Virus record (IMG/VR): IMGVR_UViG_3300024520_000049
Coordinates: 14,596 to 78,595 of that record
Source: a virus
Length of the DNA stretch: 64,000 nucleotides
Reading direction: 5' to 3' (one strand)
Shown here: positions 1 through 38,325 of the stretch, in pieces
How positions within the stretch are numbered: the stretch's first letter is position 1
How the letters are laid out: every line of letters starts with the position of its first letter
Position numbers and translations under genes: made by a program
The notes under the pieces: generated by a model
Seen by the model: the letters and a program-made list of their open reading frames with translations, nothing else
Told to the model about the DNA's origin: nothing
Database searches by the model: none

Positions 1-1227
1 GTCGATCTGGCCGAACCCATCGTCAACCCTGTAATGGAGGAGCCCGTGCGCCGGCTGCTGGGTCTGAAGGCCCGCGAGTTGTCTGACGTGATCGCCGGCC
101 GCCATGAAGTCGGCGGCAGCACAGGAGGCAAGGGTCTGCGCGCCGCGCTCGCCGCACTGGACGTGGACAAGGAGATTGAGAAGTACCGCCTCCAGATTAA
201 CGCTTCGCGCGGAGCAAAGCGGGACAACGCGGTGAAGGCGCTTCGGTACCTGGTAGCGGCCAAGAAGCAGGACATCCATCCAGAGGATTGGATCATTGAC
301 AAAGTTCCAGTTATACCGCCTATCTTCCGTCCGATCTCACAGATAGGCGACGTTCTGCGCGCTTCGGATATGAATGAGCTTTACCGCGATTTGATTGAGA
401 CCAACAACGGGATCAAGACACTGCGTAAGGATCTACCCGGGTCGGCACTCGCTGATGAGCGGCTGCAGTTGTACAAAGCAGTCACCGCCGCCGTAGGTCT
501 TGGTGAGCCGATCACCCCCGAGGGCGTGTCTAAACGATGGAAAGGTGCGATCCGCCAAGTGATCGGCACAAGCCCAAAGACTGGGCTGTTTCAGTCCAAG
601 GTGTTGTCGAAGACCGTGGATGTTGTCGGCCGTGGTGTTGTCGCACCAGATCCGTCGCTGGACATGGATTCTGTGGGTATTCCCGAAGATAAGGCCTGGG
701 TCCTGTATCGGCCGTTCGTTACCAGGAAGCTTGTGCGCCGCGGCTTCCCGCCGCATCGCGCGGCGGAGATGGTGGAGAATCGTACCAAGGAAGCTGAGGA
801 TATGCTGCTCCAGGAGATGAAGGATCGGCCAGTGCTGCTGGACCGTGCCCCGACCTGGCACAAGTTCAACCTTCTGGCGTTTACTCCGCATATTGTGAAG
901 GAGGACGTCATTCGCGTGTCTCCGCTGATTGTTGGCGGGTTCAATATGGACTTCGACGGGGACACTGCGAATTTCCACGTCCCTGTGTCAGACAAAGCGG
1001 TGAAGCAGGCGAAAGAGCGCATGATGCCCAGCCGCAACCTGTTCCGCACGACAGACCTGCAAAGCCCGCAGCATACTCCTGGCAAGGAGATGGTGATGGG
1101 GCTGTATCAGCTTACCCGCAAGCCCACAGGGAAACCGCCTGTGGTGTTCAAGAACAAGCGCGAGGCCAAAGAGGCCTACCGCAAAGGTATGATCGGACCC
1201 AATGATCCGATCATAATACAGGGATAA
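1..1227 (+). CDS. rpoC: DNA-directed RNA polymerase beta' subunit, N-terminal half (5'-truncated by window edge)
   Basis: Frame is open from position 1 (VDLAEPIVNP, like RpoC HIELAxPxxH). Contains PEDWIIDKVPVIPPIFRP, SDMNELYRDLI, SKTVDVVGRGVV, DRAPTWHKFNLLAF and catalytic FNMDFDGD, all matching conserved RpoC regions. Confidence 0.95.
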   Translation, partial: VDLAEPIVNPVMEEPVRRLLGLKARELSDVIAGRHEVGGSTGGKGLRAALAALDVDKEIEKYRLQINASRGAKRDNAVKALRYLVAAKKQDIHPEDWIIDKVPVIPPIFRPISQIGDVLRASDMNELYRDLIETNNGIKTLRKDLPGSALADERLQLYKAVTAAVGLGEPITPEGVSKRWKGAIRQVIGTSPKTGLFQSKVLSKTVDVVGRGVVAPDPSLDMDSVGIPEDKAWVLYRPFVTRKLVRRGFPPHRAAEMVENRTKEAEDMLLQEMKDRPVLLDRAPTWHKFNLLAFTPHIVKEDVIRVSPLIVGGFNMDFDGDTANFHVPVSDKAVKQAKERMMPSRNLFRTTDLQSPQHTPGKEMVMGLYQLTRKPTGKPPVVFKNKREAKEAYRKGMIGPNDPIIIQG

Positions 1228-1230
1228 CAT

Positions 1231-1818
1231 ATGAAAGATAATCCACATTTTCCCACGGGCCTGACCGTGATGGCTGGTAAGTATATGAAGTACGCCGGAA
1301 AGTATGTGCGCGGCCGTTGGCAAGACGACAACGCGCTGGCTGATCTCTCCAGCACACCTGAGAAGCAGATAGGGTGGGGCTTTAAGTTCGACATTATCTT
1401 CGGCTACACCATCCGCCCCATCCCCAAGATCTGGAAGAAGGGGTTCTGGACACATAAGCCTAGTATTAAAGATATCGACGACGCTGACTTCGAGAAGGTA
1501 TTCCCCAAGAATGCCAATAACATCCGCAAGGTGCTGGCACTTCGGGACGGCTACTCTGGTAAGTATGACGTGTACAACCCCTGGTACGGAGATTACTGGT
1601 TCATCCTGCGCCTGCCCCGCTGGGTGCCGACGGTGTTCTTCTCCATTAACACCCCGTGGAGAAGTGCTTACATCGGCAACAAGGCTTACCGTATCGATCC
1701 TTTTGAGAATGATATGTCGTGGACAAACAAAGTAGACGAAGACCGTGCCGACGACGTGGCGCCCACTCACCGGTATTACGCGCTGTGCCCGTCGGTCTCA
1801 ACAAGGAGTCATCGATAG
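1231..1818 (+). CDS. Hypothetical protein (aromatic-rich)
   Basis: 195-aa ORF packed between neighbours on the coding strand; no recognised motif. Confidence 0.6.
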   Translation: MKDNPHFPTGLTVMAGKYMKYAGKYVRGRWQDDNALADLSSTPEKQIGWGFKFDIIFGYTIRPIPKIWKKGFWTHKPSIKDIDDADFEKVFPKNANNIRKVLALRDGYSGKYDVYNPWYGDYWFILRLPRWVPTVFFSINTPWRSAYIGNKAYRIDPFENDMSWTNKVDEDRADDVAPTHRYYALCPSVSTRSHR

Positions 1819-2490
1819 GTGATAAAAGTGGCCGACCCGAAAGAGAAGCTCTACATCGCTGGACCTGTTACGGGGATAGCGAATAGGAACGAAGCGATGT
1901 TCACCCGCGCGGAGCAGATGCTCCAGCGAGAGGGGCATGAGACAGTCAACCCGTTGACAGTAATGCCAGACGATGAGGACTTGCCCTGGGTTGACGCGAT
2001 GCTCAAAGACATCCCGCCAATGATTCAATGTGACGGCATGGCCATACTTCCGGGGCCGTGGTATAACTCTTCGGGCGTGAAGCTGGAGCTTCACATAATG
2101 ATAGCACTGAAGAAGTCCATCTACCACTTCCAGGAGATCGACGGCGAGCTTCAGCTGTTCCCAGGCCCGCCGAGCGATTACGGGTCCGCAATAGCCGAAG
2201 CGCAATCACTGGTTTATGGCAACCGCGGCGCTGCCTATGGCCATCCGTATGAAGACTATACGAAGACTGCTGCGTTCATGTCAGTGATCCTTGGGATGGA
2301 GGTAACGCCTGAGAAAGCCATACTGTGTATGATTGCAGTTAAGCTCTCCCGGGAGATTCATCAGTCTAAGCGAGATAACAGAGTTGACATGATTGGGTAT
2401 GCAGAATGCCTGCAAAGGTGCTATAATCTAAATGAAGACGAAAAGCAACGAATAACCGAAGGTGTCTATGGCGGAGCAGATAAAGCTTAG
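1819..2490 (+). CDS. DUF4406 (nucleoside 2-deoxyribosyltransferase-like) fused to DUF6378-like (putative nucleotide pyrophosphohydrolase) domain
   Basis: N-term KLYIAGPVTG...NP...CDGMAILPGPWYNSSGVKLE is the DUF4406 pattern; C-term NRGAAYGHP...MIAVKLSRE...DNRVDMIGYA is the DUF6378 pattern. Confidence 0.75.
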   Translation: MIKVADPKEKLYIAGPVTGIANRNEAMFTRAEQMLQREGHETVNPLTVMPDDEDLPWVDAMLKDIPPMIQCDGMAILPGPWYNSSGVKLELHIMIALKKSIYHFQEIDGELQLFPGPPSDYGSAIAEAQSLVYGNRGAAYGHPYEDYTKTAAFMSVILGMEVTPEKAILCMIAVKLSREIHQSKRDNRVDMIGYAECLQRCYNLNEDEKQRITEGVYGGADKA

Positions 2491-2809
2491 CGAGTACTGG
2501 CTGCGGCGATGGTCGAGGCTTGTACGGATGCGGGATGGATACGTTTGTTATGTTTGTAGCGAAAATTGCAAAGATACTAGTCAGGCTCATCACGTGTATC
2601 CGAAGGCTGTTTATCCGGAGAACGCCTACTGTCTCGACAACGGAGTCTGCGTCTGTGCCGACTGCCACCAGCCCATTGTCCACAGTACCAGAGAGTCCTG
2701 GAGAAAGTTCACAGGGTTCTTCAAGCGCTACGCCCGTTACGCCCGAAACCGCAAGTTCAACGCAGCCAACCAGCTACGAGTCTGCAGAGAAAACAAACAC
2801 CACGAATAA
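2468..2809 (+). CDS. HNH endonuclease (Zn-binding, NinG-like)
   Basis: RDGYVCYVC...QAHHVYPK...LDNGVCVCADCH: CxxC, HH, N, CxxCH pattern. Confidence 0.85.
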   Translation: MAEQIKLSEYWLRRWSRLVRMRDGYVCYVCSENCKDTSQAHHVYPKAVYPENAYCLDNGVCVCADCHQPIVHSTRESWRKFTGFFKRYARYARNRKFNAANQLRVCRENKHHE

Positions 2810-2822
2810 GGAGGATCACCCC

Positions 2823-3149
2823 ATGGTTTTAGAAATGAACTGCTATCAAGACAGAGGCGGCAAGCACCGGTTCCGCGTATATGCTGCGAATCACAAAGTG
2901 CTGGCCCGAAGCCCCCGTGCGTTCAAAACAGACGCAGAGCTCAAAACGCGTGTCGACCTCATCCTCAAGCAAGACTACGACGCGCAACTGTACAAGGACC
3001 GTCGCGGTGAGTGGCGCTGGCGATTTGAAGCTGCCGTGGGCGGGAAGAAGGAAATCATTGTAATCTCGTCTGAAGGCTACAAGAATCACGGGGACTGCAA
3101 AACAGCCTCTGATCTTGTGCTCGACGCGGATAGGGCTGAGCACGGATGA
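2823..3149 (+). CDS. YegP/DUF1508 family protein (two repeats)
   Basis: YQDRGGKHRFRVYAANHKVLARS and YKDRRGEWRWRF...ISSEGYKNHGDC. Start set at ATG 2823 after AAGGAGG, not the track's 2520. Confidence 0.85.
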   Translation: MVLEMNCYQDRGGKHRFRVYAANHKVLARSPRAFKTDAELKTRVDLILKQDYDAQLYKDRRGEWRWRFEAAVGGKKEIIVISSEGYKNHGDCKTASDLVLDADRAEHG

Positions 3150-3676
3150 GCGAAGAAGCAGATAATGAAGTCGTAGCGCCTACGCCGAAAAAGCGCTGGG
3201 CCGGCTACATAGAGAAGGCGTCCCTGGCCGTGCTGGGGTTTGTCGCGATGTTTCTGTTCAACAGCATCATCTCGCTGCAGAACCAGGTAGCTGCGCTGGA
3301 AGAGAAGCGCAGCGGGGACCGGGCGCAGTGGGAGATGATCCGCCAGCACACACTCACAATGGCAGAGATGCAGGCGCTACAGATGGTGCACGAGAAGATC
3401 ATCCAGGATTACACGAGCCAGCTGATTAACCGTAAGATTGTGGTTGAGATCAGTCAGGAGACAAATGAACCTAAGGATGACTTGGCAGGGGACGGTTCGC
3501 TGGCCCCTCGGTTCCAGTTCCCCATGCTCAAAGAGCCCTCCGAGACTGAGAAGGCGATCGAGGAGCTGCGCAAGCTGCATGCTGAGAATACTGAGCCTGT
3601 AGAGCGGTTTCAGCAGCGTATGATTCAAAGATATGAGGTGCCGAACCAGCGCGCCACGGTTAAGCGGAAGAAATAG
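3146..3676 (+). CDS. Hypothetical single-pass membrane protein with coiled coil
   Basis: Hydrophobic ASLAVLGFVAMFLFNSIISL followed by heptad-like segment; ATGA overlap with upstream gene. Confidence 0.6.
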   Translation: MSEEADNEVVAPTPKKRWAGYIEKASLAVLGFVAMFLFNSIISLQNQVAALEEKRSGDRAQWEMIRQHTLTMAEMQALQMVHEKIIQDYTSQLINRKIVVEISQETNEPKDDLAGDGSLAPRFQFPMLKEPSETEKAIEELRKLHAENTEPVERFQQRMIQRYEVPNQRATVKRKK

Positions 3677-3678
3677 TT

Positions 3679-4266
3679 ATGGGGAATAAGCCAGGTACAC
3701 TCGTGCTGGCAAAGAATGCCGTCTCAGCTGCTGCCAAAGTAATTTTGCGCATCGCGTCAGGGCAGTCATACAAGGTCGGCGGCGAGGAGTTGGCTGAAAG
3801 ACTCCGTCTGTGCTACGCCTGCAAGGAGCACTTTAACCTGGAGACACGCGAGTGCTTTGACTGCGGCTGCCCGGTGCACTCAAAGACAATCCTCGCTACG
3901 GAATCATGTGGTATCGGTAAGTGGCAAGCCTTGGCGGCGGCCCCAAGCGCGGCTACAGGTGCAGTGATTACTGGGGCGGATCTTCTTGAATATGAGCTGG
4001 AGATCAGAGAGCTCTTACCTGGGACCAGTAATCTCGCCCAGGCGTTCAACAGATTTCGGCATACGCAGGAGGAAGCGGGGTGCACCAGCTGCCGGGAACG
4101 GCTGTATCATAAGGATTTTGAGAAACAGCTTAGCCGCGATATTGCGCTTATGTCTGTGGCGGATATCGAAGAGCTTCGCAAGATATTGCCGAATAAAGAG
4201 TACATCAGTCTGTCTTATCCGTATCGCTGGGACGAGATTCTTGAAAAGGCCGCAGCGAGAGCGTAA
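3679..4266 (+). CDS. Cys-rich putative zinc-finger protein
   Basis: RLRLCYACKEH...CFDCGC...CGIGKW plus a second CTSC. Confidence 0.6.
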   Translation: MGNKPGTLVLAKNAVSAAAKVILRIASGQSYKVGGEELAERLRLCYACKEHFNLETRECFDCGCPVHSKTILATESCGIGKWQALAAAPSAATGAVITGADLLEYELEIRELLPGTSNLAQAFNRFRHTQEEAGCTSCRERLYHKDFEKQLSRDIALMSVADIEELRKILPNKEYISLSYPYRWDEILEKAAARA

Positions 4267-4294
4267 AGTATCAGAACACTAGGGAGTACACTAA

Positions 4295-4855
4295 ATGGAA
4301 ACTTTGAATTACAATTTACTACGACAAGTTCAGGAAGGTTTAAGGGAGAAAAAGGCGTTTGTCCCAATGCCTGGCGGCCAGGCTGAGCCTGTCGCCGGCG
4401 CCTCCCCAATGACAGCAGGAATGGGCGCCCCAATGGGTCCCGGTGGCGGAATGCCCCCAGGCGGCGATCCGGCAGCTGGCGGCGGCGCACCGCCGATGGA
4501 CCCTGCAGCTATGATGGGCGCGATGCCCCCGGGTATGGACCCTTCTATGATGGGTGTAGACCCCGCGACAGGGATGCCAATAGGCGCACCACCCGCCGGT
4601 GCTGAGGGTGAAGAAGCCGGCGCTGCGCCGGCCGAAGCCCCGGAACCTCCCTTCACTCTTGACGATATTCGAAGTGTGATGAAAGACGAAATTGCTCAAG
4701 CGCTGAAGGGGTTTTCCCCTTCGTCAGCAGAGCGTGGTGACGGTGAGTCTAGCAGCAAGCCTTCTTCCAGTAGTGAAGGCGGCGGCGAAGGTGGAGATCT
4801 GTCCTCCGAAGTCCGCGAGCTGACGGCTACTTTGAGGCAAGCATTAGGGATGTAA
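4295..4855 (+). CDS. Pro/Gly/Met-rich low-complexity protein, possibly head-associated
   Basis: GGGAG RBS; EKKAFVP followed by a long PPMDPAAMMG/GMPIG tract. Confidence 0.6.
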   Translation: METLNYNLLRQVQEGLREKKAFVPMPGGQAEPVAGASPMTAGMGAPMGPGGGMPPGGDPAAGGGAPPMDPAAMMGAMPPGMDPSMMGVDPATGMPIGAPPAGAEGEEAGAAPAEAPEPPFTLDDIRSVMKDEIAQALKGFSPSSAERGDGESSSKPSSSSEGGGEGGDLSSEVRELTATLRQALGM

Positions 4856-4859
4856 ACGA

Positions 4860-5117
4860 ATGGCGACTCGAGTTGTAGTGCGGAGCGCGAATCTGTTCCA
4901 ACCACCCATACTTGATACTGACGAAGCCCGAATCATGGAGTTCTACGATTGTAACGGCGATCTCGTAGCGCTGATGGGTAAGATCTTCAGCGATGACTTC
5001 TGGGCATTTAGCACAAAAAATGATAACGATTGGAACGAAGCCCTGCTACGTGCGGGGTATTTGGGTAAGACTCGTTATGAGTCTCGTCCGGTGGAGATCA
5101 CCGGAGCACACAGCTAA
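4860..5117 (+). CDS. Hypothetical protein
   Basis: 85-aa ORF filling the operon gap. Confidence 0.55.
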   Translation: MATRVVVRSANLFQPPILDTDEARIMEFYDCNGDLVALMGKIFSDDFWAFSTKNDNDWNEALLRAGYLGKTRYESRPVEITGAHS

Positions 5118-5126
5118 GGATTGAAT

Positions 5127-5585
5127 ATGGCCAATATTGACGCAAACACTGTAATAATCATCGTAGCCGCTATCGGGCTTATAATTTACAAAATCATCAA
5201 CTACCAGATCGAGAAAGGGAAGACAGACCCCATCTTGCAGGCGTTTAAGGATGTCGGAGAGACGCTGGCGAAGGAGATGAAAGACAGCCGCACGATGATG
5301 GAGAAAGCCGCGTCCGCGCGCCGTAAGGCGGATGAGGTGGCACATAAAGAACTGGTAGAGCTGCTGCACCAGAACCTGAATGTGTCAAAAAAGACCCTGG
5401 ACATGCATGAAAAGTTCGACGAGAACGGGCTTCCTTTATGGTATACTCCCAGGGATTGGCAGAAGACGCAGGAGACGATCCTTCAGGTCTGCTCCACGAT
5501 ATCTGATACGCAGCGAGATATCGCGCATATACTGGAAACGATGACGAAGACACTCGATAAGCTCGAGGGTACGACTAAGGAGTAG
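5127..5585 (+). CDS. Hypothetical N-terminally anchored membrane protein
   Basis: VIIIVAAIGLIIYKII transmembrane segment then helical region; ATG 5127 follows AAGGA. Confidence 0.6.
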   Translation: MANIDANTVIIIVAAIGLIIYKIINYQIEKGKTDPILQAFKDVGETLAKEMKDSRTMMEKAASARRKADEVAHKELVELLHQNLNVSKKTLDMHEKFDENGLPLWYTPRDWQKTQETILQVCSTISDTQRDIAHILETMTKTLDKLEGTTKE

Positions 5586-5587
5586 CA

Positions 5588-7897
5588 GTGCCACTTCAAA
5601 CTACAATGGGCCAATTACTGGTAAACGAAGCGCTGCCGCCGCAGTACCAGGATCATAACCGCCAACTTATCGGGGGCGCGCTTGATGACCTTCTCGGCCA
5701 GATTGGGCGCGAGAACCCAGAGCTCTACCGCGACATCTCCCACAAACTCATGGAGCTGGGGCGGCACACCGCCTACGAGCAAGGCACCACCATCAGCCTC
5801 TCTGACCTGCAAGCTCCGTCTGAACTTCGCAAGGAAGTCTTCGCACATGTGGATAAGCAGGAAGCAGTTATAGACAAGTCAAACCTCTCCCCGGCCGAAA
5901 AGGCCCAAGCCCGTGCGGAGGTTTATGGTCAAGCGCAGAAGCTACTCACCGATGAGACATATGCACATGCGCAGAAATCTGGCAATCCCCTGGCGCTTCA
6001 GGTACTCTCCAAAGCGCGTGGTAACCCGACGCAGCTTGCGGCCATGCTCTCTACCCCTGGCACGTTCCAGGACACCAAAGGGAACACGATCCCCATCTTT
6101 GTCCGCCGGAGCTATGCTGAAGGGCTGACGCCAGCCGAGTATTATGCCGCAACCTTCGGTGCGCGGCGTGGAGTTGTCAGCACAAAATTCTGCCTCGCAG
6201 AGGGTTCCGAAGTTTTGATGGCGGATTATTCGGTAAAATGTATCGAGGATGTGAATGCTGGTGATACGGTTTTTACGGTCGACGACAACATGAAAATGGT
6301 GCCCACAAAAGTGGTAGAGACGTTCAACAATGGGCTGCGGGAGTGTTGGGATTTTAAGTTCAGACAGGGACGATCACGCAGCGAGTTTGTGTCTATTAGG
6401 GCAACAGAAGACCATAAAGCGGTTATGTCCAGGAAAAAGGGTAAGAACCGTGTTAGCGAGAAAGAACCCCTTAGCAAGGCCCACCGTGGCCGCCGGGCGA
6501 TACACCTGGCCGCCGGGGAGCACTCGACCACTGGCAATAGGTTCCACTCCAAAACGTACCTGGGAGCCGTGCATACTTACGATCTGGAAGTGGCACACGA
6601 AAGTCATAACTTCGTTTTAGCGAACATGGCAGTAGTGTCAAATTCTACACGCGACGCTGGTGATTTCGGCAAGCAGCTCAATGTTGCCGCAGCAGACCTG
6701 ATTGTCACCGAGGCCGACTGCGGGACTGTTAACGGTATTCCTGTCGGGATCGATGATAACGACACAGTGGGCGCTATCCTGGCACGCGGGTCTGGCGGGT
6801 TTAAGCTGGGAGCCCCTGTAGGCCCCAAGATGCTGAAGTCATTGAAGCAGAACAAGGTGGACAAGATTTTAGTCCGCTCACCAATCACCTGCCAAGCCCA
6901 AGGCGGTGTGTGTAAGCACTGTGTCGGCTTGCGGGAGAACGGTAAGTTCCCCGAACTCAGGTCCGCTGTGGGGATCCAAGCATCCTCGGCCCTGGCTGAG
7001 CGCATTGCCCAAGGGAGCTTGAATGTAAAACACTCTGGCGGCCAATCCGCCAAGGGTGAAGCCACCTACGCGGGTTTCAACATCATCAATCAAATCGGCC
7101 AGATACCCTCAGCTTTCCGACACAAAGCAATCTTATCGGAGCAGGACGGTTTGGTCACCAAGATTGAGCCTGCGCCACAGGGCGGCACCAACGTGTACAT
7201 CGGCGAGGAGCTGCACTACGTGGAGCCGGAGCAGGCAGTGACTGTTAAGGAGGGGGACGACCTCGAAGCTGGTGATCAGCTGGCCACGGGTATTGTCAAC
7301 CCGGCAGAAGTCGTGCGCCATAAAGGTATTGGCGAAGGTCGACGATATTTCGCGGAACGGTTGACCCAGGCGTTCAAGGACAGTAAGTTAAAGGCCAACA
7401 GGCGTAACACTGAATTGATAGCACGAGCGGTGATAGACCATGTGGATGTCGAAGAACCTTCCGGTCTGGGTAATTTTTTGCCAGGTGATGTGGCCTCGTA
7501 CAATAATCTGGCATACAGCTATAAGCCCCGAGCCGACGCAGGTGCGTTTCGGCCGACTAAGGCCGTGGGTCAGTATTTGGAGCAGCCCGCACTGCACTAC
7601 ACCATTGGGACTCGAGTAACAAAGAAGATTGCTAAAGAGCTTGAAGGATTTGGAGTAAATACGGTTACCGCACACAGCCAGCAGCCTGGGTTCACCCCTC
7701 GGATGATACGCCTGCGCGCGGTACCTCATTACGGGAAGGATTGGATGGCCAAGTTGCACGGCAGCTATTTACAGACTAACTTGCTTAAGGACGTGCAAGA
7801 GGGTTCCCAATCTAATATTCATGGAACACACCCGGTACCTGGGATCGCGTACGGCGCGGAATTCGGCGAGAGCAAGAAAAATAAGGTAACATTCTGA
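5588..7897 (+). CDS. rpoC: DNA-directed RNA polymerase beta' subunit, C-terminal half, intein-containing
   Basis: TTMGQLLVNEALP (RpoC TTxGxxxxN), SYAEGLTPAEYYAATFGARRGV (bridge helix), DLIVTEADCGT, RSPITC...GVCKHCVG (beta' Zn site II), ALAERIAQGSLNVKHSGG (trigger loop); AAGGAG RBS and GTG start. Confidence 0.93.
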   Translation: MPLQTTMGQLLVNEALPPQYQDHNRQLIGGALDDLLGQIGRENPELYRDISHKLMELGRHTAYEQGTTISLSDLQAPSELRKEVFAHVDKQEAVIDKSNLSPAEKAQARAEVYGQAQKLLTDETYAHAQKSGNPLALQVLSKARGNPTQLAAMLSTPGTFQDTKGNTIPIFVRRSYAEGLTPAEYYAATFGARRGVVSTKFCLAEGSEVLMADYSVKCIEDVNAGDTVFTVDDNMKMVPTKVVETFNNGLRECWDFKFRQGRSRSEFVSIRATEDHKAVMSRKKGKNRVSEKEPLSKAHRGRRAIHLAAGEHSTTGNRFHSKTYLGAVHTYDLEVAHESHNFVLANMAVVSNSTRDAGDFGKQLNVAAADLIVTEADCGTVNGIPVGIDDNDTVGAILARGSGGFKLGAPVGPKMLKSLKQNKVDKILVRSPITCQAQGGVCKHCVGLRENGKFPELRSAVGIQASSALAERIAQGSLNVKHSGGQSAKGEATYAGFNIINQIGQIPSAFRHKAILSEQDGLVTKIEPAPQGGTNVYIGEELHYVEPEQAVTVKEGDDLEAGDQLATGIVNPAEVVRHKGIGEGRRYFAERLTQAFKDSKLKANRRNTELIARAVIDHVDVEEPSGLGNFLPGDVASYNNLAYSYKPRADAGAFRPTKAVGQYLEQPALHYTIGTRVTKKIAKELEGFGVNTVTAHSQQPGFTPRMIRLRAVPHYGKDWMAKLHGSYLQTNLLKDVQEGSQSNIHGTHPVPGIAYGAEFGESKKNKVTF
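6191..6643 (+). mobile_element. Mini-intein (151 aa, no homing endonuclease) in RNAP beta' bridge helix
   Basis: Begins CLAEGSEVLMADYS..IEDV..GD (block A), has ATEDH (block B TxxH) and YDLEV..HNFVLAN (block F), and ends VVSN before +1 Ser. Removal restores a continuous bridge helix STKF|STRDAGDFGKQL. Confidence 0.93.
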
Positions 7898-8733
7898 TGA
7901 GCTATTTGACAGGGAAGTACTTGAAGAAGCAAGCCGCCTTGGAAGTTGTTCAACCAGCAGCAAAGGCTGGCTCAAAAGGCCTCCTAAAACTTCTGACCGC
8001 ACTTGGCCTGGTTGGCGGCGCTGCTGGGTCGATACCCGCAGCTGGTGCTTTGGGTGCGGGTGAAGATAAGCGGATTGGTGGCGCAACTTTAGGGACCCTT
8101 GCAGCGGCCCCCGGAGCTCTGGCCGGCGGCATTGGCGGCGGGGTAGCTGGTGAGAAGCTTCTTTATCCGTTGCTCGAGAAATTAAAGATGCTCCGCGGTA
8201 TCTCCCCCAGCGCTCCTGGCGTGCTCGGAGCTTTAGGTGGATTAGGCGCCGGCGCGCTGGGCGCCTCCTATATGGCAGGTGGTGCACTTCGGGATAAAGA
8301 GTCCTCGTACGCAGAAGGCTTTATCGCCAAGTGTGCTGAGCACGGGGTGGATTTGGTGGCTGCAACTAAAATGGCGCAAGAAGTAGCCGGTGCCGCCGCA
8401 GGCGGACTAGCTGGAGCAGCACTCGGCGGAGGGGTTTTGGGTGCGAATGAACTAGGCCGCCTAGCTTTAATGAACATACACAATGACACTTTTGCACGCA
8501 CTGTAGCGGACCCCTTCAGCGATGCCGGGCACGTTCTACGCGGAGCTGCCCGTAAGGTTACGCCACCAACCACGGACACAGAGATGCTGCACAAATTGAT
8601 GGCCGTTATGCGATATCTTAAGAAAAACCCGCTTAAGGTAGTAGGTGCACCAACCGCCGCGTTGGCTGGGGCCGGCGCTGTCGGTGGTTACGGCCTTAAG
8701 CAGTTAATTAACAGTTTGACAGACAAAGACTAG
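7897..8733 (+). CDS. Glycine-zipper-rich putative head/ejection protein carrying YAEGFIAKCAEHGVD tag
   Basis: Several GxxxG hydrophobic tracts; KKQAA near N-terminus; TGATG coupling to rpoC C-half. Confidence 0.65.
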   Translation: MSYLTGKYLKKQAALEVVQPAAKAGSKGLLKLLTALGLVGGAAGSIPAAGALGAGEDKRIGGATLGTLAAAPGALAGGIGGGVAGEKLLYPLLEKLKMLRGISPSAPGVLGALGGLGAGALGASYMAGGALRDKESSYAEGFIAKCAEHGVDLVAATKMAQEVAGAAAGGLAGAALGGGVLGANELGRLALMNIHNDTFARTVADPFSDAGHVLRGAARKVTPPTTDTEMLHKLMAVMRYLKKNPLKVVGAPTAALAGAGAVGGYGLKQLINSLTDKD

Positions 8734-8742
8734 GAGTAAGAC

Positions 8743-11088
8743 ATGACAAAGCTGAAGGACCTACTCGCTGAGCCGGAATACTCCGCGGTAAAACTATCCG
8801 CCGAAACTCCGGACAACCAGCAGGTCGAACGGGACTTCGGCCGGCTGGCTTACGCATTTTTGAAAGACCGCGCAACCCCGCTCGTACCCTACTTGGTAGG
8901 TTTTGAAGTTGTGGAGCAGGAACCTGATGGCTCTCGCGCCGTGGGGATCTTCGGCTTTCGCATCTCCAGCTCGTTCTACTACGTGCCGGTGTTCTTTCTG
9001 AACAACCAGATCAAGGGCATGGACATGCTGTACTCTAAAGAGGAGAAGCATTTTGTCCCGCTCCGCGAGCCGTGGGTGAACCATATCCTTAACCGCAAGA
9101 CGATCGAGCTGGGCCAACCAGCTTCCGGTGTGGTCAAGAAGGATTTCAGCGTGCCTGACTACACCTTCCTCTCCCGCCCACCGCTGGGCGGTAGCTTGAA
9201 GCTGTCTGAAGCAGGGCGCGGGATCTATGAAGTGTGGAATACCATGCAGAAAGAAGCCGTGAACATGCTCAACAATGATCCTGAGTTTGGCAAAGCTCTC
9301 GCCGGCGCGGTCACTACGATGGCCAAGCAGGCCTCACCCAGGGCTTCCGGCCAGACACGTTTAACGACGTATCTGGAGAACCAAGGCGGTCCAGACGCCG
9401 TGGCGTCGCTGCTCGATAAGATCGGGTCTGACATGGTGTTTATGAAAGCCGCCAACTGCTTCTATGACTACCACGATCTGATGATCACAGAGTTCGCTGC
9501 ATCCTTGGCGCCGAAGACCGCAGCCTCTAAGATTAAGGTTGTGACGGAGACTGATGGTGATGGCCCCATCGCCTGCTGTGACGAGGAAGAGAAGCGCGAG
9601 ATTGTGCGCGACGGGTTCACGATTGTGGACAGTCGTGATGAGGAGGAGAAGTCGGAAGTTTATGATATCGACTATCTCACTTGTGTGGGCAATCCAAACG
9701 TCACAGGCAAGTACGATCTTATTCTGGCCAGCGGGATCACCACTCCGGTATTTGTCGTCAATATCCCCTACGGGACTGACAGCCAAGGCATGACTTTGGT
9801 CGTGCACCCAGATACCGGCCGGTACTTTACCGCGGCTAACCGAATTGTTTATGTCCGAGACGGGATCAAGGAAAAGGCTGATAATGATCAGCTGTACACC
9901 GACGACCGCACGGTGGATGTTGAGAAGATGGACGTCGGCGAACACTATATCTTGGTGGATGAGAAGGGTTGCGCAAGTCTACCGTTTCGCGTCGCTGCCT
10001 CGGTTAGTGAAGACAATGACATCGTCCGCATTAAAGCTGACTGGAAAGACAGCATCACTTACGAGGATCGCGACACCACGCCCGGCTACGAGAAGATGAC
10101 AGGCCCTGACTACAAGGCCTGCTACTCCATCGACTCATATAGCGATAGCTACCTAATTATAACTGACCGCCGTGGTGAGCTTAAGAAGAGTGGCAACAAC
10201 GTGGTTGTACCGACGCAGCAGTGGAAGGCGTACAAGCTGGAGGTGCCAGATGACTATCAAGATCGTCAGGCGCAGAAGGAAGCCTTCCGTCCCGCCTCAT
10301 ATGTGGATATCATCGAGTCCATGAACAAGATCGCCTTCCACAAGGTGCAGGTTGAATCTCGCGATCAGGGCGTGGCGTTCAACATCACGCTGGACGGCCT
10401 GCTTGATAAAGAAGCCATGGGCTATAAAGAAGCCACCATCACGCTGGTTGACCGATACGGCTTTCCAGTCAACAAAGCCCAGGCGGTGCTTAAGGAAGCC
10501 GCCGAAAAGCTGAAGTCTAGACGACTGGTGCTGCTTAAGTCTGCTCAGCAGGTAGTTATGCCCCAGGAGCCGCCGCAGTACATTGGGTTCGATCAAGAGC
10601 TTGGAGTACCAGTGCAGCCCTCGCAGCAAGACTATGTGTCTGGCCAGACCGTCGGTATGCCCAAGCCGGAGCCCGGTGGCCCTGGCTCTGGTATCAATAT
10701 CGGCGGCGAAGGCGCACATCAACAAGCCATGGGCGGCAGTGGCGAAATGCCTGAGGACGCCACGCAGTTGGCAATGGAAGCCGCCCAAGCTGGACAGCAG
10801 CAAGTATTTGATCACGCTGTCATTGGCGGGCTCAGCCGCGTTTACGACACATCCGCCACTATTGATGGCTTCATCCCTGAGCTGATGACGGCTCTGGACC
10901 GCACTGGGCGCATTCTCTTCCTCTTCTACTGGAAGAACGAAGACTTCGCTGAGCGTTACGGCGACCAGGATCTGACGGAGATGGAAGACCATATCCGTGC
11001 GGTGTTCAAGTCCCTCGGCGATCTGGTGCTGAAGCTTAAGCAGAAAACAATTGATGCTGAGGAGGCTGAATATGTCCAAGGTGGTTGA
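8743..11088 (+). CDS. Large hypothetical protein, probably virion head-associated
   Basis: 781-aa ORF with GGAG RBS; K-x-A/S motifs at apparent domain boundaries (VKLSAE, KQASP, KTAAS, LKSAQQ). Confidence 0.6.
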   Translation: MTKLKDLLAEPEYSAVKLSAETPDNQQVERDFGRLAYAFLKDRATPLVPYLVGFEVVEQEPDGSRAVGIFGFRISSSFYYVPVFFLNNQIKGMDMLYSKEEKHFVPLREPWVNHILNRKTIELGQPASGVVKKDFSVPDYTFLSRPPLGGSLKLSEAGRGIYEVWNTMQKEAVNMLNNDPEFGKALAGAVTTMAKQASPRASGQTRLTTYLENQGGPDAVASLLDKIGSDMVFMKAANCFYDYHDLMITEFAASLAPKTAASKIKVVTETDGDGPIACCDEEEKREIVRDGFTIVDSRDEEEKSEVYDIDYLTCVGNPNVTGKYDLILASGITTPVFVVNIPYGTDSQGMTLVVHPDTGRYFTAANRIVYVRDGIKEKADNDQLYTDDRTVDVEKMDVGEHYILVDEKGCASLPFRVAASVSEDNDIVRIKADWKDSITYEDRDTTPGYEKMTGPDYKACYSIDSYSDSYLIITDRRGELKKSGNNVVVPTQQWKAYKLEVPDDYQDRQAQKEAFRPASYVDIIESMNKIAFHKVQVESRDQGVAFNITLDGLLDKEAMGYKEATITLVDRYGFPVNKAQAVLKEAAEKLKSRRLVLLKSAQQVVMPQEPPQYIGFDQELGVPVQPSQQDYVSGQTVGMPKPEPGGPGSGINIGGEGAHQQAMGGSGEMPEDATQLAMEAAQAGQQQVFDHAVIGGLSRVYDTSATIDGFIPELMTALDRTGRILFLFYWKNEDFAERYGDQDLTEMEDHIRAVFKSLGDLVLKLKQKTIDAEEAEYVQGG

Positions 11089-14196: not shown

Positions 14197-14909
14197 AGAT
14201 ACGGACGATCAAAAAGATTGAGAACGACGTCTTTCAGGTGATTAAGAGCACGGAAGACTTCAGTGAGGCTGACGTTCAGCTGATGGAGAAGTATGGCGAG
14301 CCCGAGGTTGATCTCGGCGGCACGTTCACAGCAAGCCCTGATTTCACCTTCCCGACCCGTCTGGAGAAGATAAAGACCGAATCCCCATTCACTCAGACAT
14401 TTGATTCACGAGATCTCGACGCGGTGGAAGTTACGACACTGACAGTCGAGGCCGCGGGCGACGCTGCAACGCTCAACAGTCTCTACTTCGACATCGACGC
14501 TGCTGACGGCAACCAATACCGCGTCTGGTTTGACGAGAATAACACGGGCACGCCACCAGCCGCCGCGGGCCGCACCCTTGTTGAGATCGACCTCCCGCTG
14601 GCTGGCACAACCACAGATACAGCCAACGCGCTGTTTGCGGCACTCGACGCGCTGTCGTCCTTCTCGGTAGTGCAAGCCACGCTGGTGCTGACTGTGACCG
14701 ACACCGCCGTTGGCCAGGTGACAGACGCTGATCAGGGCACAACGACAGCTGCGGTTGATCTCACGGTCGCCACCGCGACACAGGGCGGGTCTGCTGAAGA
14801 GAACGCGGATATCTGGAGTACTGAGATAAGCGTCCGGATCAAGGCGGCGCTGGTCGAGCTGCGTGAGAATGCAGATACCTTTACAGGTGAAGAGGTCGAG
14901 AACTGCTGA
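14193..14909 (+). CDS. Hypothetical virion protein with an inserted Thr/Ala-rich beta-type module
   Basis: Central EVTTLTV...YFDI...YRVWFD...LVEIDL...ANAL...LTVTD segment resembles modules seen in phage structural proteins. Confidence 0.55.
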   Translation: MKIRTIKKIENDVFQVIKSTEDFSEADVQLMEKYGEPEVDLGGTFTASPDFTFPTRLEKIKTESPFTQTFDSRDLDAVEVTTLTVEAAGDAATLNSLYFDIDAADGNQYRVWFDENNTGTPPAAAGRTLVEIDLPLAGTTTDTANALFAALDALSSFSVVQATLVLTVTDTAVGQVTDADQGTTTAAVDLTVATATQGGSAEENADIWSTEISVRIKAALVELRENADTFTGEEVENC

Positions 14910-37611: not shown

Positions 37612-38325
37612 ATGGAACAAACTACTGACGCATATACACGATGGTCCACGGATCCGTCTCCGGATAACATGGCGAAGATCGTGGACTCTCTGGCCCCAAC
37701 GATCAATTCAGAGGTCCAGCGCTACAAGGGCCCTAAACCACTTCTGCGCACCCAGGCCAAGCAGTTGGCTATTGGCGCGGTGAAGTCCTATGATCCGGTT
37801 GCTGGTGCGAAGCTCAACTCATGGGTTGTAACTCAGTTACAGCCACTCACCCGCTACGGGCGTGAGACAGGTACCAGCGTGCACGTCTCGGAGCTGGCCT
37901 ACCGCCAAGCCGCCGAGATACATCGCCTCCGCGAGGAGATGTCAGAAGACGCGGGCCGCGCACCCACGGACGAGCAGCTGGCGGATGCCTCTGGAATATC
38001 TCTCGCCCGTATCCAGGGACTGAAGGAGCACAGCCGTGCTGTGGTCCCTGAATCAGCCTTTACGGCTACAGACTCCCCAGATGCCATCGAACCGTCGGTG
38101 AATATTACCGGCTCTGATCCGGCGCTGATTACTGCTACAGAGATGGTCTATGAAGGGCTGGACCAACGCGATCAGATGATATATGATCTGAAGACTGGCA
38201 AGCACGGCAAGAAGATGATAGATAATCAAAATATCGCAAGACGCTTGGGAGTTACGCCGGCGTTGGTCAGTCAGCGCAGTGCTAAGATTTCACAGATGAT
38301 ACTGGAGACGAGAGACCGTGTCTGA
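37612..38325 (+). CDS. RNA polymerase sigma-70 family factor (FliA/SigB-like architecture)
   Basis: Region 2 AVKSYDPVAGAKLNSWVVTQL; region 3 GRAPTDEQLADASGISLARI; region 4 LDQRDQMIYDL...NIARRLGVTPALVSQ. Confidence 0.88.
   Translation: MEQTTDAYTRWSTDPSPDNMAKIVDSLAPTINSEVQRYKGPKPLLRTQAKQLAIGAVKSYDPVAGAKLNSWVVTQLQPLTRYGRETGTSVHVSELAYRQAAEIHRLREEMSEDAGRAPTDEQLADASGISLARIQGLKEHSRAVVPESAFTATDSPDAIEPSVNITGSDPALITATEMVYEGLDQRDQMIYDLKTGKHGKKMIDNQNIARRLGVTPALVSQRSAKISQMILETRDRV

Follow-up and report, generated by a model that had tools for sequence, protein, structure and literature searches.

Among the described multisubunit RNA polymerases (RNAPs), the closest to the one reported here are encoded by Salmonella phage Arash (gp206, 1525 amino acids (aa), and gp216, 606 aa; OQ632216) and by Vibrio phages D69, D148 and D181. 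The Arash paper labels the two proteins beta and beta' and describes neither a fusion nor a cut (PMC10585845), and the GenBank records name the two genes only 'beta' and 'beta''. Here we analyzed the orthologous genes at the start of a 64,000-nucleotide (nt) stretch of viral DNA, hereafter the window, which covers positions 14,596 to 78,595 (G000:C1:14596-78595) of the IMG/VR record IMGVR_UViG_3300024520_000049, a record of 190,498 bp that CheckV rates complete. As in Arash and the Vibrio phages, one gene joins beta to the N-terminal part of beta' (beta::beta'N), the other carries the remainder (beta'C), and the cut in beta' is the same. We consider it highly probable that these are the two core genes of a bacterial-type multisubunit phage RNAP with redrawn subunit boundaries, in which the cut is old and the gap between the genes became a cargo slot later.

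The likeness to Arash and D69 extends to the position of the genes after the portal gene and to the accessory genes lying between them (nine in Arash, two in D69). The intein-free sizes, 1464 and 618 aa, match the approximately 1450-1530 and 600 aa of these relatives, and the ends align with those of Arash, D69 and more than 70 loci. The Arash and Vibrio enzymes differ in their sequence (about 29-32% identity), in having no inteins and in their unrelated gap genes.

A split beta' is known from several other systems. Cyanobacterial and plastid rpoC1 (gamma) and rpoC2 (beta') are likewise two separately translated chains, cut after the active-site barrel in the same inter-domain zone; however, that cut lies about 15-30 residues further downstream, the two genes are adjacent, beta is separate, and alpha and omega are present. 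RNAPs of the phiKZ/AR9 type are phage-encoded, lack alpha and omega, have a beta' split after the double-psi beta-barrel and include a virion-packaged form (PMC7598289, PMC7824862), and reviews place their beta' split at the cyanobacterial site (PMC7598289, PMC7824862). They are far more divergent, with beta in two to three pieces, no sigma and no known beta-beta' fusion, whereas beta is continuous here save for inteins and a sigma-like open reading frame (ORF) is present; rough PHROG profile coordinates suggest that beta' is cut about 30-45 residues further upstream in them than here. The archaeal largest subunit is also made of two chains, A' and A'', cut after the bridge helix. In the 'genes in pieces' of the T4 family (Aeh1 nrdA/mobE, T4 gene 39/60/mobA, split gene 43), the gene of an essential phage enzyme is broken into two ORFs, other genes separate them, and the pieces reassemble into active enzyme (PMC2988022); there a homing endonuclease occupies the break and the split is phage-specific, whereas here the cut is clade-wide, the cargo varies and endonucleases are rare.

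A fused beta-beta' is known as well. The rpoBC proteins of Helicobacter and Wolbachia (NF007172, NF011417) have the same in-frame joint, but there the fused chain (about 2850 aa) takes in all of beta', zinc ribbon included, while the phage chain is cut after the catalytic barrel. The phage enzyme unites both features, and its cut site is distinct from those known. The layout is not described in the literature searched (the Arash and mReC papers, reviews of jumbo-phage RNAPs, and work on virion RNAPs, fusions and splits, and RNAP inteins), an absence that is in itself no proof. As for the relation of the clade to the 'mReC' lineage of Weinheimer and Aylward, that paper mentions no fusion, split or intein.

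Partition of beta and beta' between two chains

The phage is uncultured, and our reading of its polymerase is drawn from the sequence of one genome of about 190 kb and its relatives. The identity of the pieces was tested by Pfam, NCBIfam, PHROG and PDB-chain searches, and collinearity with beta' is given in positions of the bacterial beta' model TIGR02386 (1147 positions). The cut was mapped at residue level by MAFFT alignment with E. coli RpoC (L086). Relatives were collected by a scan of IMG/VR, which yielded 78 loci, and cultured phages were found by tblastn; L004 denotes the genome's own locus, including the sequence upstream of the window.

The first piece is open in frame 1 from the window edge and terminates in ...EAYRKGMIGPNDPIIIQG at a TAA (1225-1227). 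It constitutes the final 408 aa of a 2198-aa ORF (G000:C1:9226-15822, that is L004:9226-15822) whose start lies 5370 nt (about 5.4 kb) upstream of the window. The first two thirds of this ORF are RpoB (Pfam Rpb2_6, E 3e-38), and PDB beta chains align to its residues 38-162, 349-406, 827-1273 and 1669-1732. When the fusion joint was aligned with E. coli, the beta C-terminus (...SLGINIELEDE) passed directly into the beta' N-terminus (...ETINYRTFKPERDGLF...) residue by residue. The N piece of beta' matched solved beta' chains with an E value of 1e-57. Gene 1 thus encodes a complete beta and, continuing in the same frame, the front part of beta', from the clamp N-terminus through the active-site barrel with NMDFDGD, so that both double-psi beta-barrels are on one chain; the single frame of 2198 codons joins the two subunits as in rpoBC fusions, but stops after the barrel instead of running through all of beta'. 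The beta' zinc ribbon (E. coli C70/C72/C85/C88) is absent, about 32 residues being deleted in the E. coli alignment (region L004:14300-14600). The same precise deletion (E. coli C70-C88) is common to this phage, Arash and a subgroup of relatives with three polymerase genes.

Gene 2 starts with GTG rather than ATG, and its 769-aa product opens with PLQTTMGQLLVNEALP. It carries the bridge helix, the trigger loop and C-terminal clamp elements, matches TIGR02386 at positions 548-751 and 833-1064, and aligns to Tth beta' at 944-1090, 1087-1128 and 1174-1394, the bridge helix being interrupted by an intein. Solved beta' chains were matched with an E value of 4e-35, and Pfam Rpb1 domains 1, 2 and 5 were found across the N and C pieces. 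The TIGR02386 scores, 230.7 bits for one piece and 183 bits for the other, fall short of the curated cutoff of 963.5 bits; judged by these profiles, the beta' of this polymerase is a divergent, re-partitioned relative of RpoC and not an equivalog.

The initial annotation had described a beta' in two pieces with nine ORFs between them (1231-5585), which the translation and the RpoC matches to both pieces confirm. Its wording of beta' split into two genes has to be replaced, as the N half is only the tail of the 2198-aa ORF and the actual partition is beta::beta'N on one chain and beta'C on the other. It was also silent on three inteins, two in the fusion ORF and one in the C half.

The cut site and its distribution

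The N piece ends at TIGR02386 position 533 and the C piece starts at 548, so that about 14 positions are missing and no conserved block is lost. In the MAFFT alignment, the end of the N piece falls at about E. coli RpoC 551-553 (strand RVKVRI), Q4-T5-T6-x-G8 of the C piece is aligned to D571-T572-T573-x-G575, and the missing stretch corresponds to a hairpin tip at about residues 553-567 of E. coli beta'. The continuous, stand-alone beta' of phages Va2 (1192 aa), RHph_TM30 (1127 aa) and 1.031.O (1263 aa) shows a strand-turn-strand with a short Gly-containing turn at the cut position, and the unsplit clade member L073 reads ...DTVEILGVDPRYRYSATAGR... across it, again strand-turn-strand. From these alignments, the new C- and N-termini should be the two strands of one hairpin and lie side by side in the folded enzyme.

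Comparison with the cyanobacterial subunits was made on the NCBIfam profiles. The N piece stops at position 550 of 619 in the gamma model TIGR02387, and the C piece enters the beta'' model TIGR02388 only at its residue 50 (position 31). By these coordinates the TTxG..NExLP motif belongs to gamma in cyanobacteria and to the C chain in our phage. Since the phage cut thus lies upstream of TTxG and the cyanobacterial one downstream, the two fissions are independent. A PDB search with the first 64 residues of the C piece, tried for locating the cyanobacterial cut, returned chance matches only, and the profile coordinates were used instead. Residues 170-199 of the C piece still match the end of the archaeal A' model, which puts the archaeal cut after the bridge helix.

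Both pieces were found by tblastn in Arash, 4.8 kb apart, and in Vibrio phages D69, D148 and D181, 0.64 kb apart. About 70 of the 71 related IMG/VR lineages share the cut, and nearly all of the 78 loci have a homologous N-part end and C-gene start. The distance between the genes ranges from 0 to more than 8 kb across these loci, Arash and D69, and the genes filling it are unrelated, many of them on the opposite strand. In its minimal state (L061) the gap is 3 nt: the N part ends in ...PGPLRKK and TAA, TCC follows, and the C gene begins with ATG (MSEPIVITPG). Most loci encode one beta::beta'N frame of 1450-1530 aa, and many are longer through insertions at a few recurring sites. L073 is the only relative with an uncut beta', its beta'N and beta'C parts lying in one frame. 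In the three-gene subgroup, the 'beta' gene still holds the first approximately 80 residues of beta', that is, the same fusion plus a second cut.

Further natural cuts are seen among L057, L060, L061, L080 and L083. The second cut of the three-gene subgroup falls at about E. coli beta' residue 135-175. At L080:3026-3953, beta is split at about residue 505 with the pieces approximately 0.9 kb apart. At L073:7150-7225, the frame of the beta N-part overlaps the betaC::beta' frame at a run of eight A; either a sequencing error, with all parts then fused in one chain of about 2140 aa, or an actual or programmed frameshift could explain this.

A quick maximum-likelihood tree of the C part of beta' separated the clade from continuous-beta' phages and E. 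coli with an SH-aLRT (approximate likelihood-ratio test) support of 100. Both major subclades contain members with the two-chain layout, and the three-gene form is found in one of them only. The N and C halves have the same nearest relatives and co-diverge (identity rho 0.82 over 66 loci). On this distribution, the cut is one old, clade-wide event and not a feature of the phage studied alone.

With the junction and its counterparts in view, two ways in which a continuous beta' might still arise can be weighed. The 4.4 kb could be an intron or other RNA-level intervening sequence, with a continuous beta' mRNA produced by splicing. Group I introns are frequent in phage genes, the two coding pieces are co-directional and the junction lacks some 14 residues. 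However, a TAA closes the N piece, translation of the C piece has a separate AAGGAG and GTG to start from, and nine ORFs fill the interval. Searches of window positions 1-8500 gave no Rfam family even at E <= 1, and no group I or II ribozyme core was recognised there. In relatives the interval spans between 3 nt and over 8 kb and holds unrelated genes, many of them in the opposite orientation; Arash gp206 and gp216 carry separate annotations and were detected as two proteins. An intron is hence extremely improbable. Alternatively, a split intein could rejoin the halves by protein trans-splicing, a thought encouraged by the unusual richness of this RNAP in inteins. Against it, the end of the N piece and the start of the C piece lie directly in beta'-homologous residues, neither terminus has a Hint or intein match or a Cys/Ser/Thr +1 context, and the orthologues of Arash, D69 and L061 end and begin alike, leaving this option with a practically negligible probability.

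The preferred reading, two separate genes with an old cut between them, agrees with much of what the initial annotation had proposed. The fission is clean, and the loss of large RpoC blocks that had been feared at the junction is not seen; the placement just before TTxG, unlike the cyanobacterial split just after it, is borne out by the profile coordinates; and the shared nearest relatives and correlated identities of the halves place both in one lineage. Mapping of the split site and the intervening genes in related phages, which had been suggested, recovered the cut at homologous residues in nearly all loci with differing gap genes. An independent fission in a phage RNAP holds in so far as the cut is distinct from the cyanobacterial one, but the trait is old and common to a large clade with cultured members rather than an event of this phage. 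The 4.4-kb interval is one state of a hypervariable slot for accessory genes and no part of the split mechanism. Assembly from separate chains, for its part, draws support from Arash, whose products are separate and abundant virion proteins.

Inteins and interval genes

Two inteins interrupt the beta part of the fusion ORF, one after the ...TPE motif and the other within the equivalent of the GGQRFGEME motif. Intein 1 covers aa 407-752 (346 aa; L004:10444-11481; ...ISGPE/CLAHPEEW...FWTGN/SEKIG), and intein 2 covers aa 1280-1667 (388 aa; L004:13063-14226; ...GAKKM/CFPAHQKV...LVVSN/SSMDV) and matches Pfam LAGLIDADG_2. Both are LAGLIDADG-type inteins. All five aligned orthologues (Arash gp206, D69 0261 and three from IMG/VR) lack them, and 1464 aa are left after their removal. 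Intein 1 gave no PDB or Pfam match and is supported comparatively: its site is occupied by homologous inteins in L051 (37.5% identity, E 7e-66) and L027, and by mini forms in L018 and L031.

The third, a mini-intein in gene 2, spans aa 202-352 of the C piece (...VSTKF/CLAEGSEV...AVVSN/STRD) and interrupts the bridge helix where E. coli beta' passes from L788 to K789. Its TIGR01443 (intein C-terminal region) score exceeds the cutoff, and it has Hint matches and aligns end to end with DnaE mini-inteins (residues 6-151, E 2e-4). It is absent from Arash, D69 and L008, while L037 has a full-length allele of 387 aa at the same site; beta'C measures 618 aa once it is removed. Because the intein junctions are canonical, we infer that each chain must undergo protein splicing first, with two inteins leaving the product of gene 1 and one that of gene 2.

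A 1039-aa ORF near the left end of the genome (L004:704-3823) also has Intein_splicing and Hint_2 matches, and the phage therefore carries at least four inteins. Elsewhere in the clade, inteins or LAGLIDADG-bearing insertions occupy conserved catalytic motifs in L015, L018, L027, L030, L031, L034-L037, L043 and L051. The recurrent sites are beta ...TPE/, beta GDKL/..GRYG, the position directly after beta' DxDGD (boundaries approximate), the bridge helix and two sites in the trigger loop. Most of these inteins end in [SG]N/S, and related inteins are present at differing sites, which suggests that they have spread within one enzyme.

The interval between the two polymerase genes (about 4.4 kb, 1231-5585) is filled by nine tightly packed ORFs on the + strand (Table 1). 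The closest relative, L008/L009, whose polymerase is 67-73% identical, carries homologues of two of them (3679-4266 and 4860-5117) in its own gap; the other seven are unique to our phage, and none of the nine has a homologue in any further locus among the related loci compared. Neither tRNAs nor boundary repeats were found in the gap, and consensus scans of it for promoters and terminators stayed at chance level. Across the relatives, 118 gap ORFs include nine ferritin-like proteins, five with LigD-type domains, three SNF2 helicases, two to three HNH genes and one P22 antirepressor domain. With so little shared content, the gap reads as a permissive, hypervariable slot for accessory genes, and the phage studied is an intein-rich member of the clade with an unusually full gap.

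Table 1. Positions in the window of the polymerase genes, the genes between them and the sigma-like ORF
Feature	Position	Strand	Evidence
3' end of the beta::beta'N fusion gene (last 408 codons and stop)	1..1227	+	translation; Pfam RNA_pol_Rpb1_1/_2; TIGR02386 160-533
Catalytic Mg-binding motif NMDFDGD of beta'	943..963	+	N-piece residues 315-321; aligned to B. subtilis beta' NADFDGD
Gap ORF 1, 195 aa, no family	1231..1818	+	same frame as beta'N gene, TAA-CAT between; no homologue in related loci
Gap ORF 2, 223 aa, DUF4406 / nucleoside 2-deoxyribosyltransferase-like and DUF6378	1819..2490	+	Pfam, PHROG
Gap ORF 3, 115 aa, HNH endonuclease	2462..2809	+	PHROG 144, E 3e-10; Pfam HNH just under cutoff
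Gap ORF 4, about 109 aa, DUF1508 (YegP-like) repeats	2820..3149	+	Pfam PF07411 above cutoff
Gap ORF 5, 176 aa, no family	3146..3676	+	Pfam/PHROG searches
Gap ORF 6, 195 aa, Cys-rich, weak DUF6171, phrog_13558	3679..4266	+	homologue in L008/L009 gap, E 2e-17
Gap ORF 7, 186 aa, low-complexity G/P/M/A-rich, no family	4295..4855	+	Pfam/PHROG searches
Gap ORF 8, 85 aa	4860..5117	+	47% identity to ORF in L008/L009 gap, E 6e-19
Gap ORF 9, 154 aa, hydrophobic N-terminal stretch, no family	5121..5585	+	stop TAG 5583-5585, 2 nt before beta'C start
Shine-Dalgarno AAGGAG, 5 nt before beta'C GTG	5577..5582	+	read from sequence
beta'C gene, 769 codons (N-extein 5588-6190, intein, C-extein 6644-7894)	5588..7897	+	translation; TIGR02386; PDB beta' chains; orthologues Arash gp216 and D69 0264
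Mini-intein, 151 aa, Cys1...Ser-Asn/Ser+1, no endonuclease domain	6191..6643	+	absent from orthologues; TIGR01443; DnaE match
Sigma-like (sigma-70-family) ORF among tail and baseplate genes	37612..38325		Sigma70_r3 above Pfam cutoff; weak SigB/F/G-like matches

Since an HNH gene (2462-2809) lies inside the gap, the gene of this phage could have been disrupted recently by a mobile cassette, as in the T4-type 'genes in pieces', for which Aeh1 nrdA/mobE, T4 topoisomerase/mobA and split gene 43 are precedents (PMC2988022); it also fits that all but two of the nine gap ORFs occur in this phage only. Yet the homologous residue is cut in about 70 lineages, including L061 with nothing inserted (3 nt), HNH-type genes amount to only two or three of the 118 gap ORFs in relatives, no repeats flank the interval, and none of the 78 loci is a close relative (>90% identity) with an uncut gene. 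Recent disruption is very unlikely. A homing endonuclease as the creator of the cut in this phage was rejected, given the spread of the cut across the clade and the scarcity of endonuclease genes in the gaps; an endonuclease may nonetheless have delivered some of the gap cargo.

Some details of the neighbouring reading frames should be pointed out. The stop of beta'N and gap ORF 1 are in frame (TAA CAT ATG, 1225-1233), and read-through of the TAA would add 197 aa, a His followed by the 196 codons of gap ORF 1 less its stop; with one chance in three, the shared frame is probably a coincidence. Gap ORF 4 most likely starts at ATG 2820, where DUF1508 begins, rather than at TTG 2520. Downstream of beta'C, a 278-aa ORF (7897-8733), for which neither a family nor, in the related loci, a homologue was found, precedes a conserved 781-aa protein (8743-11088) whose homologues lie downstream of beta'C in many relatives. 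By this comparison the 278-aa ORF is another lineage-specific insertion beside the polymerase.

Working and meaning of the predicted enzyme

The genome contains a single RNAP set with one beta gene, and no homologue of alpha or omega was found in it. The sigma-like ORF (37612-38325), which has a Sigma70_r3 domain, is likely the specificity factor of the polymerase; the Pfam model for sigma region 2 matched nothing in the genome at E <= 0.01. As the genes adjoin those for the portal and head proteins, the synteny resembles that of Arash, where purified virions gave 3516 spectra for Gp206 and 1210 for Gp216, placing both among the most abundant proteins, and the sigma factor Gp10 was detected as well (PMC10585845).

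Taken together with the relatives, these features outline how the enzyme would work. Genes 1 and 2 are separately translatable, the first up to its stop codon and the second from its own AAGGAG and GTG, and the inteins would be spliced out of each chain before assembly. The two chains, whose Arash counterparts are both abundant in virions, would then associate non-covalently, the cut hairpin being re-formed from both termini. The covalent beta-beta' link would replace the platform of alpha and omega, and the enzyme would most likely act with the phage sigma-like protein and without either of these subunits. From the synteny with Arash, virions would probably carry it to serve early transcription. 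After the old cut, the site between the genes would have gathered unrelated accessory genes, nine here and none in L061.

Several points weigh against this reading. Assembly, splicing and packaging in our phage are transferred from its relatives. All three inteins lack the penultimate His, with Ser in its place in the mini-intein, which bears on splicing efficiency, and single-sequence AlphaFold2 models built with no alignment were unusable (predicted confidence, pLDDT, 34 for intein 1 and 30 for the mini-intein). The location of the cut in a beta-hairpin with adjacent termini comes from the alignment and from the bacterial structure, and we take it as an assumption. L073 sits on a long basal branch, so that the order of fusion then cut is not secure. 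Finally, four of the nine gap ORFs have neither homologue nor family, and these gene calls are putative.

It could also be argued that insertions and inteins have left only decaying, non-functional remnants of the polymerase genes, given the missing penultimate His, the lost zinc ribbon and the curated full-length RpoC cutoffs that are not reached. Long open frames are nevertheless kept in every lineage, the catalytic motifs are intact (NMDFDGD, the bridge helix flanks and the trigger-loop region) and the two halves co-diverge. Moreover, the products are abundant in Arash virions, and this is the sole RNAP set of a CheckV-complete genome. Decay is accordingly a highly improbable account, and we retain that of a two-chain polymerase with redrawn subunit boundaries.

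Extending it to the clade, we lean slightly towards a large family of virion-carried RNAPs, which would carry both barrels on one chain and the bridge helix and trigger loop on a second. In such a family the fusion would stand in for the alpha2/omega assembly platform, the enzyme would be directed by a phage-encoded sigma, evolution would have turned the permissive cut site into a slot for accessory genes, and the enzyme would mature through several rounds of protein splicing at catalytic motifs. Such enzymes would parallel, independently and in a bacterial-like form, the virion RNAPs of phiKZ and crAss phages.

For database users, the 'beta' and 'beta-prime' labels in current records hide the true domain content of these proteins. 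The clade offers natural variants of the enzyme: uncut (L073), two-chain (the majority), three-chain, and intein-bearing at several conserved catalytic motifs. They show at which points a multisubunit RNAP can accommodate broken chains and inserted sequence, and the clade also bears on assembly without alpha and omega. Cultures of Arash and the Vibrio phages exist, which makes assembly, promoter use with the phage sigma and virion delivery directly testable. The slot between the genes may be a useful place for finding new accessory or anti-defence genes. If the family reading is true, the clade would be a natural experiment on the limits of re-partitioning a multisubunit RNAP.

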